A DNA stretch of 37,139 bases from a virus. Taxonomy: Duplodnaviria > Caudoviricetes. The stretch lies in IMG/VR virus record IMGVR_UViG_3300014657_000001, positions 1-37,139 of that record. One strand, given 5' to 3'. The position numbers were made by a program, and so were the translations under genes. Numbering within the stretch: the first letter of the stretch is position 1; every line of letters begins with the position of its first letter. The notes under the pieces are model-generated. The model saw only the letters and a program-made list of their open reading frames with translations. It made no database searches and was not told where the DNA came from. Positions 9,759-33,700 of the stretch are shown piece after piece.

Positions 9759-10552
9759 TGCAGAGGCCCTATGAACGATGGCGAATTAGGGTTACCAGCA
9801 GGGTTTGCATATCCTGGGTTATTCGGGTTGTAATATGAAGTAGGGCTGTTCTGCTGCAGCATGTTGCCGTACATATAAGCACTAGCTAAACTATTTACGC
9901 CACCACCCAAAGCATTAGCGACGCCCATTTGCCCGGCAGCATTTGCATTACCAGCGCCTATGATAGAATTTGACATGCCGCCGGCAAAGGCACTCCCACC
10001 CAAAGCACTGTTCGTTCCGGAGGCTTGACCCAATTGGGCTAGGTTTCCCAATCGACTGTAGATGTTGTTCTGGTTGTTGTTGTAATTGTTGTATGCCTGC
10101 TGGTAAGCACTTCCTGCCGTATTTTGCGCAAATGCTTGCTCACCAGCAAAAGCATTTCCGCCACCAGCGCCACCAGCAGCAGCGTTCTGATTGGCGAGCA
10201 TTCCCTCGTTTTGTCCTAGCTGGAATTGATAATTCGGAGCAATGTTGGCCTTTAGGTCTGCGGCTCCGAACTGATGCAAAAGACCAGGCGCACCACCAGG
10301 CCCCCCCGTCTCGCTGGAATTCAAATATCCTTGAAGCGTTCCAAGGTCTTGAGAACCAGCGCCCATATAGGGAGCCATATTTCCCTGTATGGTGTTAAAC
10401 ATACCAAGCTGCTGAGCAGTGGCATTGTTCGCGGCAGACGCTTGCGTATCGGCTGCACTTTGAGAAGCATTTGCGCCGATAACAGATCCAACCACACCTA
10501 GAGCACCAGCCCCAAGTATCGCTGCACCAACGCCCGTAATACCGGCACTCAT
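9755..10552 (-). CDS. DNA ejection protein (P22 gp7-like)
   Basis: Gly/Ala-rich hydrophobic N-terminus; APY..AG, PNYQFQLGQ, RL..LA.LGQ motifs. Confidence 0.85.
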   Translation of the reverse strand: MSAGITGVGAAILGAGALGVVGSVIGANASQSAADTQASAANNATAQQLGMFNTIQGNMAPYMGAGSQDLGTLQGYLNSSETGGPGGAPGLLHQFGAADLKANIAPNYQFQLGQNEGMLANQNAAAGGAGGGNAFAGEQAFAQNTAGSAYQQAYNNYNNNQNNIYSRLGNLAQLGQASGTNSALGGSAFAGGMSNSIIGAGNANAAGQMGVANALGGGVNSLASAYMYGNMLQQNSPTSYYNPNNPGYANPAGNPNSPSFIGPLQ

Positions 10553-11364
10553 TGCGTTACCCTTTCAAGAGGAACTAAACCGGCACCATTAACACTCATG
10601 GAGTTGCGGTAATCAACGGTTATTTCCTCTCCTTTTCTTATTGGACGCAATGCTATAGCCGCAATGCTTTGCTCCTGCGCTTGAACAAACGTCGCATTAG
10701 ATTTTCTGGAATGATTCATCAACCATCCAGCAGGAGTGCGCTTATCCCGTATCCTTATCGGAGAGATAAATTCCCTCTCTGCAAAATCTCTGGTGGCAAA
10801 AGTTCCTACGCCGTGTATGGTAGATTTCCTAAACTCTATCGATGGAACATGAATATCAATTCGATCCGATCGGTTATCTACCAACTTCATCACTACGCCC
10901 TCAGTAAGTCCGTATTCCTCTAGGAACTTTGAGTAGTCGATTCTGTCTAGGTTCGCCTCGTTATTCAATAGTTGAATGTTTTGCGATCCACCCATCAATT
11001 CTTCGCGGGTGGATTCAAGTATTTCCGCCGTTATCTTATCCAGATCGGTTTCATCCCCAACCCAATGATAGGTAGTCCATACCGTCGTCTCGATTGCATA
11101 ACCCACTCGCTTTGCTCCGGGTTTTGAAATGAGCGTGTATGGCGCGCAAATCTCTTGCATCCCATCATCTGTCGAAACCATTATTCGACCCTGCGAAACG
11201 GTGCATAAATGCTCATGCCGATGCACTGCGCCAGTCAAAACAACACCGCCAGGAATGGTCATTTCCCGAGCATACAAACCACCAGCCAAATAATGCCGCA
11301 CAGGGCAATGCGCCTGCGGGAATTGCTGGATTTCATGCTCAAGAGCAATGACTTTTTCTAACAT
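10549..11364 (-). CDS. Cupin-like domain fused to a SET domain (putative methyltransferase)
   Basis: N-terminus HYLAGGLYAREMTIP.G..LTG..H.HEH...G cupin; C-terminus S.IHG.G.FA, MNHS..SN, I.KGEEITVDY SET motifs. Confidence 0.88.
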   Translation of the reverse strand: MLEKVIALEHEIQQFPQAHCPVRHYLAGGLYAREMTIPGGVVLTGAVHRHEHLCTVSQGRIMVSTDDGMQEICAPYTLISKPGAKRVGYAIETTVWTTYHWVGDETDLDKITAEILESTREELMGGSQNIQLLNNEANLDRIDYSKFLEEYGLTEGVVMKLVDNRSDRIDIHVPSIEFRKSTIHGVGTFATRDFAEREFISPIRIRDKRTPAGWLMNHSRKSNATFVQAQEQSIAAIALRPIRKGEEITVDYRNSMSVNGAGLVPLERVTQ

Positions 11365-27717: not shown

Positions 27718-27858
27718 TCACTTGCGCTTCTTCTTTCCTGCTTCCCGCTTTTCAGCGTAGGCGATTGCCAGACTTTGCTTTTCCGGCTTGCCGGACTTTA
27801 GCTCGGCTTTCAGATTATGTTTGAAAGCTGCTTTGGACTTGCTCTTTTCCAGCGGCAT
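27718..27858 (-). CDS. 46-aa basic protein MPLEKSKSKAAFKHNLKAELKSGKPEKQSLAIAY...
   Basis: MPL.K..S..AF..N...E...GKP.KQA.AIAY pattern typical of packaging regions. Confidence 0.75.
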   Translation of the reverse strand: MPLEKSKSKAAFKHNLKAELKSGKPEKQSLAIAYAEKREAGKKKRK

Positions 27859-28174
27859 CGTCTTTCTCCATAACCATAGTAATGTCTTTGTCCTGAAGCA
27901 GGAAATGTTCCTCGCCGTTTAGCTTTACACGCTGGAACATGAATTCCCCGAAAGCTACGTGATCCCCGATGCTTACTTCCATCGGTAGGATTTCTCCTTT
28001 GCGGGTTTTCTTGCCAGGCCCAACCGCAACCACTACGCCAGTCCTGCCTAACTGTTGCTGGCTATCAATGATCTTTCCATCGCGCGGGGCTATCACTATC
28101 CCGCTAATGGTTGCGTGTTCTATTGCAGCATCAGGCTTTACGAGGATTCGATCCCCGGTAGGCTCAAATGTCAT
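27815..28174 (-). CDS. groES: Co-chaperonin GroES-like protein
   Basis: P.GDRILVK, T.SGIVI, G.VVAVGPGK, V..GD.V.F, L.GEE...L...DI. Confidence 0.92.
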   Translation of the reverse strand: MTFEPTGDRILVKPDAAIEHATISGIVIAPRDGKIIDSQQQLGRTGVVVAVGPGKKTRKGEILPMEVSIGDHVAFGEFMFQRVKLNGEEHFLLQDKDITMVMEKDDAAGKEQVQSSFQT

Positions 28175-29851: not shown

Positions 29852-31090
29852 TTAATGATGCGAGGCGGAATTCGTTATTTCCGGGAAAATGTTCCATTCC
29901 TTACGTCTTTTTTTTGAAAGTTCAACATATTTTTCGTATGCATGGCTCTTGGTAGGACTAAATCCCAATCCCTTGCACCAGTAATCATTCCGCAGGAATG
30001 TCTTTACCACCTTGCGCCAGCTCGGCACCTTACCGGCGCTCTCTAGCCGCAATTCCGCAAGATCAGGAATTCCATCGTCGTACCCACGTTTACTCCACCA
30101 TTTAATATAGACGGCGAGCTTGTTTTTGTAGTGTTCGCTAGTGCGTGGAGGCATCGTCTTTAAAAGATGCTTGGCAAAAGATTCATAGGTATGGTTAGGC
30201 GGCAGAGCTACATGATGGTTGCCTAGAACGGCGCCCTTATCCTGGCAATATAAAGCGCCTGTATTAGCTCCTGCAACCCGCAGACATACCTTCGCCCACA
30301 TTGCAGGTTCGACTACCTGATACAGCCATAGCCCTTTTCTAGCCTCATCCCCAAACGGTTCACAGATCCGCATTTGGCTAATCTTCACTCCGGCCTGGTG
30401 CATGCGGTCATAGAGCTTGTTATAGGGCTTGCGCTCTTTAGCAAAGTACGTCCAAATATCTTCGGTTCTCCAGTCGTATATCGGGTAGACATTCCAGACA
30501 TCGTCTATGCAATTAGTCGTCCATGCCTTCCCGTCATACATTGGCTTGTCACCACGCGCCACGGTACGAAAGCGATTCAGACTTTCATCGGCTCGAATCC
30601 CAACGAAGCAAGCACAAGATTCACCATCCGCATACCACGCTCCGAAAGCCGGCACAAATTCTTCAAACGGCATTCCTTCGTAATAGAACGGGAAATAGGT
30701 CAAGTCGGTTATGCTTTCCGGTTCCGGCTGGCGCACCCACAATTCGCACTTCTCTCTGTCCCAAGCGGTCCATTCAGGCTCAATTTGCGAGCATGAATTC
30801 CAAGTCTTTATTGGAAGAGCAACCCAATAAGGCTCAACATTCTCTGCATATTCCGCATACATGCGCTTTGCAAAATCAACGGTAAGCCCTATCTGGCATT
30901 CCCAATCAAGCATGAACATGCCAACCTTACGGCCGCGTTTCTTTGCTTCATCCATCACAAGGTGGAGCATCGCGGTAGAATCTTTCCCAGCGCTAAATGA
31001 CAAATAAATCTTGTTGAAGTTGTCGAATGTCCATTCTATCCGCTGTCTTGCTGCGGTTAGCACGTCGAGGTTCAGTCCGCGTTTTGGCAT
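29852..31090 (-). CDS. ibrA: IbrA/YbdN-like PAPS-reductase-family (PP-loop) protein with DUF3440 C-terminus
   Basis: SFSAGKDS PP-loop, VGIRADESLNR, YPIYDW, MRICEPFG, NDYWCKGLGFSPTK. Confidence 0.92.
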   Translation of the reverse strand: MPKRGLNLDVLTAARQRIEWTFDNFNKIYLSFSAGKDSTAMLHLVMDEAKKRGRKVGMFMLDWECQIGLTVDFAKRMYAEYAENVEPYWVALPIKTWNSCSQIEPEWTAWDREKCELWVRQPEPESITDLTYFPFYYEGMPFEEFVPAFGAWYADGESCACFVGIRADESLNRFRTVARGDKPMYDGKAWTTNCIDDVWNVYPIYDWRTEDIWTYFAKERKPYNKLYDRMHQAGVKISQMRICEPFGDEARKGLWLYQVVEPAMWAKVCLRVAGANTGALYCQDKGAVLGNHHVALPPNHTYESFAKHLLKTMPPRTSEHYKNKLAVYIKWWSKRGYDDGIPDLAELRLESAGKVPSWRKVVKTFLRNDYWCKGLGFSPTKSHAYEKYVELSKKRRKEWNIFPEITNSASHH

Positions 31091-31457
31091 ATTTTTCTGC
31101 CCAATAGGCTATTGCGTTATCAGCGGCAGCGTTTGCTGCATCCTGTTGTACCTGCGTCAATGTTCGCCACGCAAGCCTAGTTAGATCCTCCGAAGCATTG
31201 TGATTTATCGCACAGCCTGCATGCCCTATCCATGCTTGATGATTCATTGTTGAGGCAGTAAAAGCCGCTTCGCAGGAATTGGGCCATTCGTCTATCGCTC
31301 GTTTGCATGCTGATTCGAAAGCCTTGCAATCAATCATTAACAAGGCGGAGTTGTCTTGCATCGCCTGCCGTTGCTCTATCGGTATCACTTTCCACATATT
31401 GCTCTTGTATTCCTCGCACTTCTCCCAATGGTGAAATACCCTCTTGAATTTCCTCAA
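30993..31457 (-). CDS. Unknown protein between ibrB and ibrA (likely TTG start at 31457)
   Basis: GAGG RBS before TTG; RVFHHWEKCEE, W.NSCE, N.QAWIG.A.C, R.AW..L...QQ..AN..AD.AI..W. Confidence 0.8.
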   Translation of the reverse strand: MRKFKRVFHHWEKCEEYKSNMWKVIPIEQRQAMQDNSALLMIDCKAFESACKRAIDEWPNSCEAAFTASTMNHQAWIGHAGCAINHNASEDLTRLAWRTLTQVQQDAANAAADNAIAYWAEKYAKTRTEPRRANRSKTADRMDIRQLQQDLFVI

Positions 31458-32091
31458 TATCTTCCTCGCCAGTAAATGACTCGGCTTCCCATGCTTCGGA
31501 AAATTCTCTATCAGCAAAAAGTCCAGAAAGCCCGGTTATCTGTTGCAGCCTCAAAACCTCATCCGATTCCATTCCAAGCTCTATTGCAATCTTTTCGTCT
31601 GACCAGAAACGGCGCTTCAACTCCACGACAATTTCCGACATGGATTCAATCTTGTGCTTTCCACGCGCCCGGTTATGCCGAATGGTAGAAGCCATCCGAT
31701 CATTCTTTCCCTCCTGCGACTCCTTTATCGTAACTACAGGCAAATATCCATGAACGCGCATATGCACGTCCTGACATTCTTTCCCTACTCTTTTACGGTG
31801 GAATCCGTCGACAACTTCTCGCAAATCATCCCGAGGAAAAGTAACGATAGGTTGCGTATACCCGTCCGTCATAATCGAATGACGCAACAATTCCATTTCA
31901 GGCGGAGCAACGCTGTTAGGGTTGTAATCGTTGGAATGAACCGAATCGCACCTGACCCATTGCACGCAATCGACAGGCTCATCTCGGAATGGACTAATCG
32001 CATGAATAGCCAAACGCAACTCATTGATAGCAGCAATCCGATCATCTATCGGCATTGCCTCAATCTCCGTAAGTATCTCTTTTATATTCAT
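31330..32091 (-). CDS. ibrB: IbrB/YbdM-like ParB/sulfiredoxin-fold protein
   Basis: SPF..EPVDCV.WV, NDYNPN.VAPPEM.LL..SI..DGYTQPIV, VVDGFHR, ASTIRHNRARGKH, LGM..DEVLRL.Q. Confidence 0.93.
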   Translation of the reverse strand: MNIKEILTEIEAMPIDDRIAAINELRLAIHAISPFRDEPVDCVQWVRCDSVHSNDYNPNSVAPPEMELLRHSIMTDGYTQPIVTFPRDDLREVVDGFHRKRVGKECQDVHMRVHGYLPVVTIKESQEGKNDRMASTIRHNRARGKHKIESMSEIVVELKRRFWSDEKIAIELGMESDEVLRLQQITGLSGLFADREFSEAWEAESFTGEEDIEEIQEGISPLGEVRGIQEQYVESDTDRATAGDARQLRLVND

Positions 32092-32099
32092 AGTATCCC

Positions 32100-32290
32100 C
32101 GGTGGTGAGCGAGACCCAGCCATCCCTAGCGGTTTAGCTAAGCCTTCACAAAGCATCCCCGTATGGAGCCGCATTGACCCGCCAGTCTTTCACCCACAGG
32201 CACTAGCTTCGCCACCTGGTCCGGTCTCTCAGGGCTTTCCCACAGTACCGGCTATCCATCAACCCTGCCGCTGAGACCGCGACGATTGAT
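32100..32290 (-). ncRNA. Candidate structured RNA (multi-stem), unassigned
   Basis: Stems 32273-79/32222-28, 32261-67/32230-36, 32214-18/32197-201, 32137-49/32109-20, with G-U pairs valid on the minus strand. Confidence 0.55.
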
Positions 32291-32295
32291 CGGAC

Positions 32296-32330
32296 AACAA
32301 AAAGCCCCGGACCCTTGCGGGTACGAGGCT
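32296..32330 (-). terminator. Intrinsic terminator-like hairpin
   Basis: AGCCUCG-U-ACCC-GCAA-GGGU-C-CGGGGCU then UUUUGUU. Confidence 0.75.
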
Positions 32331-32430
32331 ATGATTACTCTTTAGGGAGATGCGGAGTGGAGGCCGCAGCGAGGAATGTTTGGCGCGAAGCAAGGGGAGT
32401 TGCCCCCGCATCTCTCCAAAAAGCAATCAT
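32331..32430 (-). other. 25-bp long inverted repeat (RNA hairpin)
   Basis: 32331-32355 vs 32406-32430: 21/25 Watson-Crick, 3 of the 4 others are G-U on the minus strand. Confidence 0.8.
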
Positions 32431-32484
32431 TCCTAGCATTGGAATCCTTTACGCAACTCCCCAGTTGCCACGACCATTATGGCA

Positions 32485-32739
32485 TCAATTTCCACGCTTG
32501 CGCAACCCCCTGCAACCGTCACTTGTAACAACTCCCCCAGCCCTCTCGCAAGCCTGCTCCATAGCCTGCTGCTGCTTGAATAAATCATCTATCTGTGTAT
32601 CCCATGCTACGAATAAATAACGGATAAGGACACATATTGCTAGCAGGGCTATGACGACATAGCGAAGTGGGGGATGGTCATGCTCTTGGGCGAATAGCTT
32701 GCGGTCGAGCTTTTCTAGGAATTGGTCATAGTTCATCAT
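32485..32739 (-). CDS. Single-TM hypothetical protein
   Basis: AAGGA RBS; hydrophobic segment; C...GG.....C tail. Confidence 0.7.
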   Translation of the reverse strand: MMNYDQFLEKLDRKLFAQEHDHPPLRYVVIALLAICVLIRYLFVAWDTQIDDLFKQQQAMEQACERAGGVVTSDGCRGLRKRGN

Positions 32740-32908
32740 CTGTTTCCTTTATCCGCTTATCAATAAACCAATCTTGATCCAATCTACCTGCCTGGTATGG
32801 TACCGGAGGCTCTATAAGCGGCGGAGCAGCCCATAGATCATCCGTTGGATGCGGAGGCGTCCTGGGACGCGGCTGGTAGTTGTTAGACCATTTTGTCGTT
32901 GTTTTCAT
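32726..32908 (-). CDS. Pro-rich hypothetical protein
   Basis: GGGAG RBS; overlaps neighbours. Confidence 0.55.
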   Translation of the reverse strand: MKTTTKWSNNYQPRPRTPPHPTDDLWAAPPLIEPPVPYQAGRLDQDWFIDKRIKETDDEL

Positions 32909-33158
32909 GCAACTCCCTCAGGCATTTGTATTGAACCTCGTTGAGCCTTTCGCCAGAGTCGCGCCTAGCTGCCAGTAGGTAAAGCCACGCACGGTTTCCT
33001 ACCAGCTCATCTAGCCGTTTCCTCGCATACGCCTTCCAATCTGGCGGAATGCTCGTATGGTTGCTGATGATGATTGCAGCGCACCAGGCTTCGCGCGTTT
33101 TGAACTTCCCGCTAGCTATTGCGTTTTCGCATCGTTGATGTGCGTCCATGGTTGACAT
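32883..33158 (-). CDS. Hypothetical protein, first gene of the leftward operon
   Basis: RAW...L.AR...GE.L...Q motif; GGGAG RBS suits the Met at 33149. Confidence 0.65.
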   Translation of the reverse strand: MSTMDAHQRCENAIASGKFKTREAWCAAIIISNHTSIPPDWKAYARKRLDELVGNRAWLYLLAARRDSGERLNEVQYKCLRELHENNDKMV

Positions 33159-33179
33159 TCTCCCACCAGTTGATAGAAT
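33152..33179 (+). promoter_or_regulatory. Sigma70 promoter at the divergence point
   Basis: TTGACA-16 bp-TAGAAT with extended -10 TG. Confidence 0.7.
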
Positions 33180-33204
33180 AAGTCAATATACAAGGAGCAA
33201 TTAA

Positions 33205-33363
33205 ATGGGCGCGAAGCAACATCCCGATACGGCCAAAGCAATCGAACGAATTCTTAAGGGATTGCCAGTCAAAGATGCTGCCATACTCTACAAACTGCAT
33301 CCGACTACGCTTTGGAAGGCTTTGCGCAAACTTAAAGGCGTAGGGCAGATTCCTACCGCATAA
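33205..33363 (+). CDS. 52-aa helix-turn-helix protein (absent from the ORF track)
   Basis: AAGGAG RBS; KAIERILKGLPVKDAAILYKLHPTTLWKAL fits an HTH pattern. Confidence 0.8.
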   Translation: MGAKQHPDTAKAIERILKGLPVKDAAILYKLHPTTLWKALRKLKGVGQIPTA

Positions 33364-33379
33364 GTAGTAGATACCCTAC

Positions 33380-33408
33380 TAGACATAGACGAATAATGCG
33401 ACTACAGT
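33380..33408 (+). promoter_or_regulatory. Putative promoter for the early rightward operon
   Basis: TAGACA-17 bp-TACAGT; adjacent palindrome TAGTAG-N5-CTACTA at 33365-33381. Confidence 0.55.
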
Positions 33409-33439
33409 ACGTACATCAACAACGTACTTGGAGCAGCAA

Positions 33440-33700
33440 ATGACCACCAATCACACCCCCGTGGTTACCTACACCATCACCGAAGGGCAGCTTGTGCGCC
33501 TGTGCGATGGCGTGCAAGAAGACGCAATTGATTGCTCTGTCGCGTTTGCAGCACCGGATCTGCTGGCCGCGCTGGAACGCATCACCGGCAATTTCAGCGC
33601 CACGCGCCTCATCATGAAGGACGCCGAAACGCGCGCCATGGCGACCGAGACAATCGAAATCGCCCGCGCCGCTATCCGTCGCGCCAAGGGGGAAGCATGA
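33440..33700 (+). CDS. Hypothetical phage protein
   Basis: GGAG RBS; AAPDLLAALE...ARAAI..AKGE motif. Confidence 0.8.
   Translation: MTTNHTPVVTYTITEGQLVRLCDGVQEDAIDCSVAFAAPDLLAALERITGNFSATRLIMKDAETRAMATETIEIARAAIRRAKGEA

Follow-up and report, generated by a model that had tools for sequence, protein, structure and literature searches.

Initiation of replication through an R-loop is established for ColE1 and T4, as set out in part of PMC5333043. On the basis of the same part of that paper (PMC5333043), the logic which we propose to be shared by ColE1/pMB1 RNA II, the T4 R-loop origins and the phage element described here is that a transcript made from a promoter folds, hybridises again with its own template and takes over from an initiator protein. 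The iteron origins of lambda (O/P) and P22 (18/12) occupy the same genome slot as this element and likewise have an AT-rich tract, and relatives carrying the RNA keep an O-like C-terminal domain and sometimes a P-like loader. They differ in that the RNA loci are without the N-terminal DNA-binding domain, while the window (the whole stretch of DNA analysed, 37,139 nucleotides) contains no iteron array at 31500-33500 (repeat search) and no O or P remnant (PHROG and homologue comparison). ColE1 RNA II is about 550 nt long and uses a fixed G-tract as its hook, while the phage element is about 200 nt long and carries a variable direct repeat. As with a ColE1-type origin, no origin-binding initiator was found in the window or in the relatives, with the exception of L146 (see below). 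Unlike ColE1, the element is found in temperate-type phages with initiator fragments and its origin activity is a prediction; Rfam gave no RNA II or RNA I match to it at E values up to 10.

HK022 put is a structured RNA of two hairpins (about 70 nt) near an early phage promoter; the present element lies similarly near an early promoter, but put has no link to initiator loss. Among plasmids, ARRPOF, GEBRO and PAGEV are structured motifs of 223-349 nt tied to replication regions by a mechanism that is not known, and ARRPOF sits in a region sufficient for rep-independent replication (both from part of PMC5737381) and has four pseudoknots (part of PMC12990946). ARRPOF is thus an earlier example of a structured orphan RNA belonging to a replication region that does not depend on rep. 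The three motifs differ from the element in being of plasmid rather than phage and in forming separate families, which have no Rfam match to it. Considering the sequence comparisons below, we estimate a probability of about 0.6 that the element is an RNA-based origin of replication and stands in for an initiator protein that binds the origin.

The RNA element and its direct repeat

The full structured element, as delimited by the homologue alignment, extends over 32092-32293 of the minus strand. The first-pass annotation had suggested a novel ncRNA here and an Rfam search to check it. That search found the element already catalogued: RF02932 (Betaproteobacteria-1) matches 32177-32293 (minus strand) over its whole model (1-120 of 120) with 89.6 bits, the gathering cut-off being 49.4. 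By the tested criteria the element belongs to RF02932 and is therefore not a new RNA, so that novelty falls away for the 5' 117 nt and stands for the 3' domain. The homologues are conserved for about 80 nt past the end of the model, to 32092, and the model thus misses P4-P6, the direct repeat and a long-range GGUGG pairing (see below). An extended model, R1, gives the window element 122.6 bits, the window sequence being among those from which R1 was built. RF02932 also matches in all 20 homologue loci tested. A pattern scan of part of IMG/VR yielded at least 119 loci (about 660 are estimated in total), and a GTDB scan yielded 65 RNA loci, with hosts mostly from Betaproteobacteria. Before counting, 4 of 113 homologue rows and then L098 were left out; the structural alignment leaves out 5 of 76 rows that have no PKb anchor and another 8 in which the 3' anchors are missing.

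In Rfam, RF02932 carries no function and is typed as sRNA; we take it to be a motif from a 224-motif survey. The main text of that survey (PMC5737381) does not name a Betaproteobacteria-1 motif. A literature search, whose reach excluded most subscription papers, found no paper on RF02932, and the name Betaproteobacteria-1 led only to papers that are unrelated by title and abstract opening. Searches on origins and RNA returned nothing or general replication papers only, and in the literature searched we found no publication that describes the 3' domain, the code in the repeat, the sister modules or a connection with truncated initiators.

Covariation supports six helices and three pseudoknots in the element, all on the minus strand. 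These comprise P1 (32293-32284/32264-32256), P2 (32251-32247/32225-32221), P3 (32218-32214/32201-32197), P4 (32176-32171/32154-32149; 87-92% paired), a small P5 hairpin and the P6 hairpin (32112-32144), together with the pseudoknots PKa (32235-32232/32195-32192) and PKb (32207-32202/32186-32181) from covariation and PK0 (32268-32265/32245-32242) from mutual information in 81 model-aligned sequences. In an unfitted alignment of 61 sequences, 85.5% of the cells of this structure are paired, compared with 69.1% in shuffled alignments (0 of 500 as good) and 36-43% in slid-register controls, and the two pseudoknots left out of the covariance model reach 97.5% and 99.2%. The motifs quoted in the first-pass annotation were all found in place, and two of its stems are borne out, CAGGU/GCCUG as P3, which covaries (93-94% paired), and the GUGA(A)-side stem GGCUUAGC/GCUGGGUC as P6 (82-84% paired). 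Its nested stems CGGUCUC/GAGACCG and CAGGGUU/AGCCCUG were rejected, with 52.3% paired cells against 50.6% in shuffles; their letters belong instead to P1, P2 and a pseudoknot. The GGUGG at 32216-32212 of the RNA is invariant; the invariance of GGUGGCGAAG is partly imposed by the search patterns with which the homologues were gathered.

The fold is specific to the minus strand, wobble pairs included, as had been claimed from the letters: the minus-strand fold beats chance (z -2.82, matched by 1 of 200 shuffles), the plus-strand fold is no better than chance (z +0.52), and the sense strand folds better in 80 of 81 homologues. The covarying helices hold 214 G-U against 19 A-C cells, an excess which fixes the RNA strand. 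The earlier statement that the minus strand has no credible ORF agrees with the homologues, in which no conserved ORF was found and at most 14 of 75 are stop-free in any single frame. A protein-coding reading of the region was rejected because of stops in most homologues, the absence of frame bias in the lengths of the 3' domain (22/22/19 modulo 3) and the lack of a family match, the 206-aa plus-strand ORF having none in Pfam or PHROG.

Several pairs of alignment columns covary by identity rather than complementarity and outline an imperfect direct repeat of about 27 nt. Copy 1 (32155-32181, minus strand) overlaps P4 and P5; copy 2 (32095-32118, minus strand) is found at the 3' end of the RNA and in the window includes the ibrB ribosome-binding site, and P6 lies between the copies. 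The two copies of one element align better (score 19.0) than copies from different elements (8.6) and share longer words (6.8 against 3.8 nt at the longest), and the own pair is better than a nearest-neighbour swap in 53 of 58 homologues, 5 mis-parsed rows being left out of these repeat comparisons and of the GGUGG comparison. The 3' part of the repeat varies among homologues yet agrees within each one. The 5' part may also owe its agreement to pairing, as an alternative, with the 5' strand of P6 (-7.1 for own and -6.0 for cross pairs), and UCACC of copy 2 (32108-32104) is able to pair with the invariant GGUGG; full pairing of GGUGG with the 3' pentamer is possible in 52 of 58 sequences, compared with 25% in shuffles. 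No complementary RNA partner of the repeat was found upstream, in the 5' domain or downstream (within 600 nt), so the template strand remains its simplest partner.

Directly 3' of the RNA lies an AT-richer tract (32052-32091, minus strand; 35% GC against 52% for the genome). In the window this tract is modest and coding, as it forms the start of ibrB; in 48 of 58 homologues the first 40 nt past the element are more than 10 points below the GC content of the locus.

Replication genes around the RNA

The window is a circular phage genome of 37 kb with a 123-nt terminal repeat, in line with the earlier view that it is complete. Its Pfam and PHROG matches include a P22-like portal and coat, terminase, Erf and SSB. 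Divergent promoters at 33152-33186 (promoter scan) and a 52-aa HTH-like ORF, recognised by eye and without a family match in Pfam or NCBIfam, form an early switch at 33152-33363. From these promoters, leftward transcription would pass three small ORFs, the RNA region, ibrB, the middle gene and ibrA, nin-like nucleases and the late genes. The cumulative GC skew minimum at 33-34 kb is uninformative on the origin because the coding strand switches at the same place. Scans of 40 ORFs with Pfam and PHROG, of 20 with Pfam (19 of them newly scanned) and of 20 with NCBIfam revealed no initiator, helicase, primase or polymerase, which upholds what had been read from the translations. A loader-type protein is likewise absent from the window, as is a full-length O-like initiator with the N-terminal DNA-binding domain, which is also absent from the phrog_270 matches of the RNA-bearing relatives. 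A 91-aa ORF (32883-33158) had no usable Atlas match.

The RNA sits between cro-like and nin-like genes, the slot that the first-pass annotation had named, and a cro-like gene was found upstream in 39 of 75 viral loci. The proposal that the relatives simply have no replication genes is too strong, since 55 of the 75 loci have one within 3 kb of the RNA (20 have none). The commonest neighbour is a downstream protein of about 124 aa (38 of 75), which matches just positions 179-259 of 383 of the initiator family phrog_270; its longer relatives bear HTH_36, DUF1376, Phage_rep_org_N or Phage_rep_O domains. The 29 RNA-bearing virus records contain 17 phrog_270 matches, which without exception fall in frames of 117-151 aa that do not include the N-terminal part. 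Besides, an SF2 helicase and/or a short Toprim primase, which matches just positions 72-325 of an 802-position family, lies beside the RNA in 15 of 75 loci. Both replication gene sets, the O-type C-terminal domain and the short primase with helicase, are without an origin-binding domain, and judged from these protein matches the relatives appear to lack origin recognition and not replication genes.

Individual loci vary. In L074, another O-like C-terminal domain (phrog_678, 219-296 of 346) and a P-like loader directly follow the RNA; L080 has a full primase-helicase; G015 has a short O-like gene 2.2 kb away on the opposite strand; and in L008 the RNA adjoins terminase genes. For instance, the cultured Acidovorax phage AP1 has the order ParB, helicase, primase, RNA. 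L146, with a ColE2-type replicase 1 kb downstream of the RNA, is the exception to the absence of an initiator. G005 and G011, which have terminal repeats, resemble the window in that no replication gene was found among the ORFs scanned (the scan took in 110 of 361 cluster representatives from nine genomes, with structural genes mostly left out).

The initiator C-terminal domain has a confidently predicted structure (pLDDT 90) and no PDB sequence match; the best structural comparison reaches Z 6.0, the candidate matches include small SAP/Rho-N-like ones and SPP1 G39P at Z 4.1, and the nearest named Atlas cluster is Phg_2220_C at 0.89. As a window counterpart of this domain we obtained a sole match of 31 aa in the ibr middle gene (E 0.006), which was not accepted.

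Truncated initiators and other modules of the slot

In a protein-first selection of 160 distinct loci with the C-terminal domain (11 with short context and 3 at edges were left out), 106 of 114 stand-alone domains carry a module in the slot, namely 41 the RF02932-type RNA, 36 family B, 15 B2, 7 C and 7 D, and 8 carry none of the five. None of 32 full-length initiators carries any module, and 23 of them have at least 2.5 kb of upstream sequence. For the RF02932-type RNA alone, the contrast is 41 of 114 stand-alone against 0 of 23 full-length loci (Fisher p 2e-4), so the anticorrelation with initiators that had been put forward as a check is present. The counts are of loci and not of independent events, and lineage may inflate the contrast: the profiles for B, B2, C and D derive from stand-alone loci, and of the 32 full-length controls no more than about 5 have at least 4 neighbouring genes in common with the module phages. 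Among 73 distinct short-primase loci, 37 have the RF02932-type RNA, 20 have family D downstream and 16 have none of the five. The RF02932-type RNA and family D both occur with both gene sets, which means that two RNA families exchange between unrelated sets.

At least four further conserved modules occupy the same slot, with no Rfam match in the 16 loci scanned. Family B, a structured module of about 230 nt that precedes the stand-alone initiator domain, has a long-range GGUG:CACC pair, an AT-rich tail and no Rfam match; it covaries, with double changes in 25 of 34 predicted pairs (L202:1179-1410, L212:4196-4440, L229:3934-4165, L243:2171-2405 and about 30 more; variant B2 in L254:4666 and L255:3535). 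Family C is a conserved non-coding slot module, again without an Rfam match (L218:3675-3880, L231:3299-3507, L252:4795-5001). Family D (L257:2931-3145, L260:1885-2100, L457:1765-2000, L454:3616-3850) has 5' hairpins in common with family B, and its last hairpin contains a G4-TA-G6/7 run followed by U-rich bases, reminiscent of mitochondrial CSB2; the repeat around this hairpin changes in step (29 of 30 concordant), with only three sequence types. Other conserved or structured-looking modules, as yet unclassified, follow a terminator in the same slot in L452, L466 and L469 (130-400 nt past the primase stop), and more lie at L224:1-400 and L207:4140-4400.

Upstream region, origin model and rival explanations

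Directly upstream lies a second structured element (32296-32469, minus strand), a long stem with a three-way junction (fold z -3.97) and no Rfam match. It ends in a terminator-like hairpin (32330-32304, minus strand) followed by a U-run; this terminator of the first-pass annotation is seen as hairpin and U-run in the fold, but was not called by a terminator scan. The loop CAACUCCC (32402-32395) is complementary to three GGGAGUUG sites (32461-32454, 32536-32529 and 32917-32910), one of which falls at the ribosome-binding site of ORF 32726-32908. To our eye the element resembles the CI/C4 antisense RNAs, and such a CI/C4-like element likely gates transcription into the RNA. Upstream of both elements, an extended -10 promoter-like site, TG-n-CATAAT (32476-32484, minus strand), was recognised by eye and missed by the promoter scan; the terminator-like hairpin separates it from the RNA. 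Similar hairpin-plus-terminator units were seen ahead of the slot in many relatives.

The RNA-primer or R-loop origin of the first-pass annotation agrees with the genomic context, namely initiator fragments, short primase with helicase and no module beside a full-length initiator; its mechanism is what we infer. Host RNA polymerase would start at the upstream promoter (32484-32476), and read-through of the gating terminator would yield an RNA of about 200 nt that folds its three-pseudoknot core. Repeat copy 1 may then hybridise with the template strand of the DNA for copy 2, so that an R-loop would persist at the border of the AT-rich tract, where the RNA 3' end would prime synthesis and the displaced strand would take up a helicase. 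Loading might be helped in some relatives by the stand-alone O-type C-terminal domain (plus the P-like loader in L074) and served in others by a helicase and short primase of their own. Neither of these gene sets is encoded in the window, so that this phage would rely on restart proteins of the host in the manner of ColE1.

We also consider, quite tentatively and as something that may well prove wrong, that a widespread class of betaproteobacterial phages swapped the DNA-binding half of the initiator for interchangeable structured RNAs, of which the RF02932-type RNA would guide the opening of the origin by a two-strand grip with a built-in variable specificity code. At the 3' end of this RNA's own gene, copy 1 would hold the template strand, and the displaced one would be caught by GGUGG together with the 5' strand of P6.

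Some of these observations would also suit a cis-acting regulator of transcription in the early-right/late operon, a put-like antiterminator or co-transcriptional switch in which copies 1 and 2 alternate in pairing with P6 and GGUGG and so switch a downstream terminator or ribosome-binding site. The RNA lies early in a long operon, 31 of 75 loci have a T-run immediately ahead of it and 18 of 75 have a -10-like box (by crude patterns, counted without chance control), the pairing of GGUGG with the 3' pentamer competes with P3, and copy 2 in the window holds the ibrB ribosome-binding site. However, downstream genes and their distances from the RNA vary widely. The specific idea of a riboregulator of the ibr trio was rejected: relatives of ibrB (ParB-like), the middle gene and ibrA (PAPS reductase/DUF3440), which lie at 29852-32091 (minus strand) as passengers and not as a conserved partner, occur in 0 of 145 RNA-bearing loci, and a literature search on ibrA/ibrB found no RNA link. 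A regulator would further leave unexplained the AT tract and the loss of the initiator N-terminus wherever a module is present, and we consider it unlikely. An origin that acts as folded single-stranded DNA, recognised by primase or primosome, accounts for the replication context equally well; the element often begins within about 20 nt of the primase stop codon, and comparative methods detect motifs of single-stranded DNA too (part of PMC5737381). Against this, the DNA would first need melting by something, promoter-like boxes abut the RNA 5' end in several homologues, and the element has three pseudoknots and many invariant U-G pairs. Such features are typical of RNA, and a DNA origin of this kind seems distinctly unlikely to us.

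The compact three-pseudoknot core with its many invariant bases (partly fixed by the search patterns) and a hairpin flanked by direct repeats bring to mind a ribozyme that cuts or rejoins RNA at equivalent positions of the repeat copies, for example for a primer end or a small circle. The element matches no Rfam ribozyme family and we judge this improbable, though such an activity would be compatible with the origin model and not an alternative to it. Hardly probable, finally, is a trans-acting sRNA or mobile RNA cassette without a replication role that lands in an accessory hot spot after cro, for which the sRNA type in Rfam and the lone, sometimes multiple Burkholderiaceae copies with their own promoter-like site speak. 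This does not accord with the finding that the RNA and full-length initiators exclude each other, or that the RNA and family D replace one another in both replication gene sets. About two dozen Burkholderia/Caballeronia copies are lone promoter-plus-RNA cassettes amid unrelated genes (part of the neighbours were Pfam-scanned). This subfamily (L120-L122, L128, L130, L131, L137-L139, L157-L160, L184 and others) is dispersed, several per genome, with a conserved promoter-like leader of about 100 nt; flanks vary and some copies are truncated, so that the cassettes look mobile.

If the RNA-based origin is real, it would give a function to the orphan family RF02932, account for the replication of many complete phage genomes from fresh water and soil in which no initiator can be recognised, and place beside ColE1 and T4 a class of phage origins that are defined by RNA and use several independent folds. 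It would also offer a 200-nt protein-free candidate replicon for Betaproteobacteria, and the covarying repeat lends itself to a direct test by compensatory mutation.

No small rep-less plasmid with the RNA was found, the search giving just a 1.5-Mb Burkholderia replicon and one weak match. Among cultured phages, the window, L020 and family B queries had no match and the L032 query had one. For the homologue L037 no RNA data set was listed, and the one sequencing run examined yielded a contig of 157 nt, which extends into sequence on the promoter side and may stem from DNA. Exchangeable genes flank the RNA in relatives, such as PAPS-reductase-like genes, methyltransferases and others of no known function (L022:2149-2895, L037:2059-2898, L065:3098-3664, L072:786-1364), and the ibr trio looks like one of these passengers. 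The window also contains a GroES-like co-chaperonin gene (27815-28174, minus strand) immediately ahead of the terminase genes and a gene for a SET-domain protein (10549-11364, minus strand) within the virion genes.
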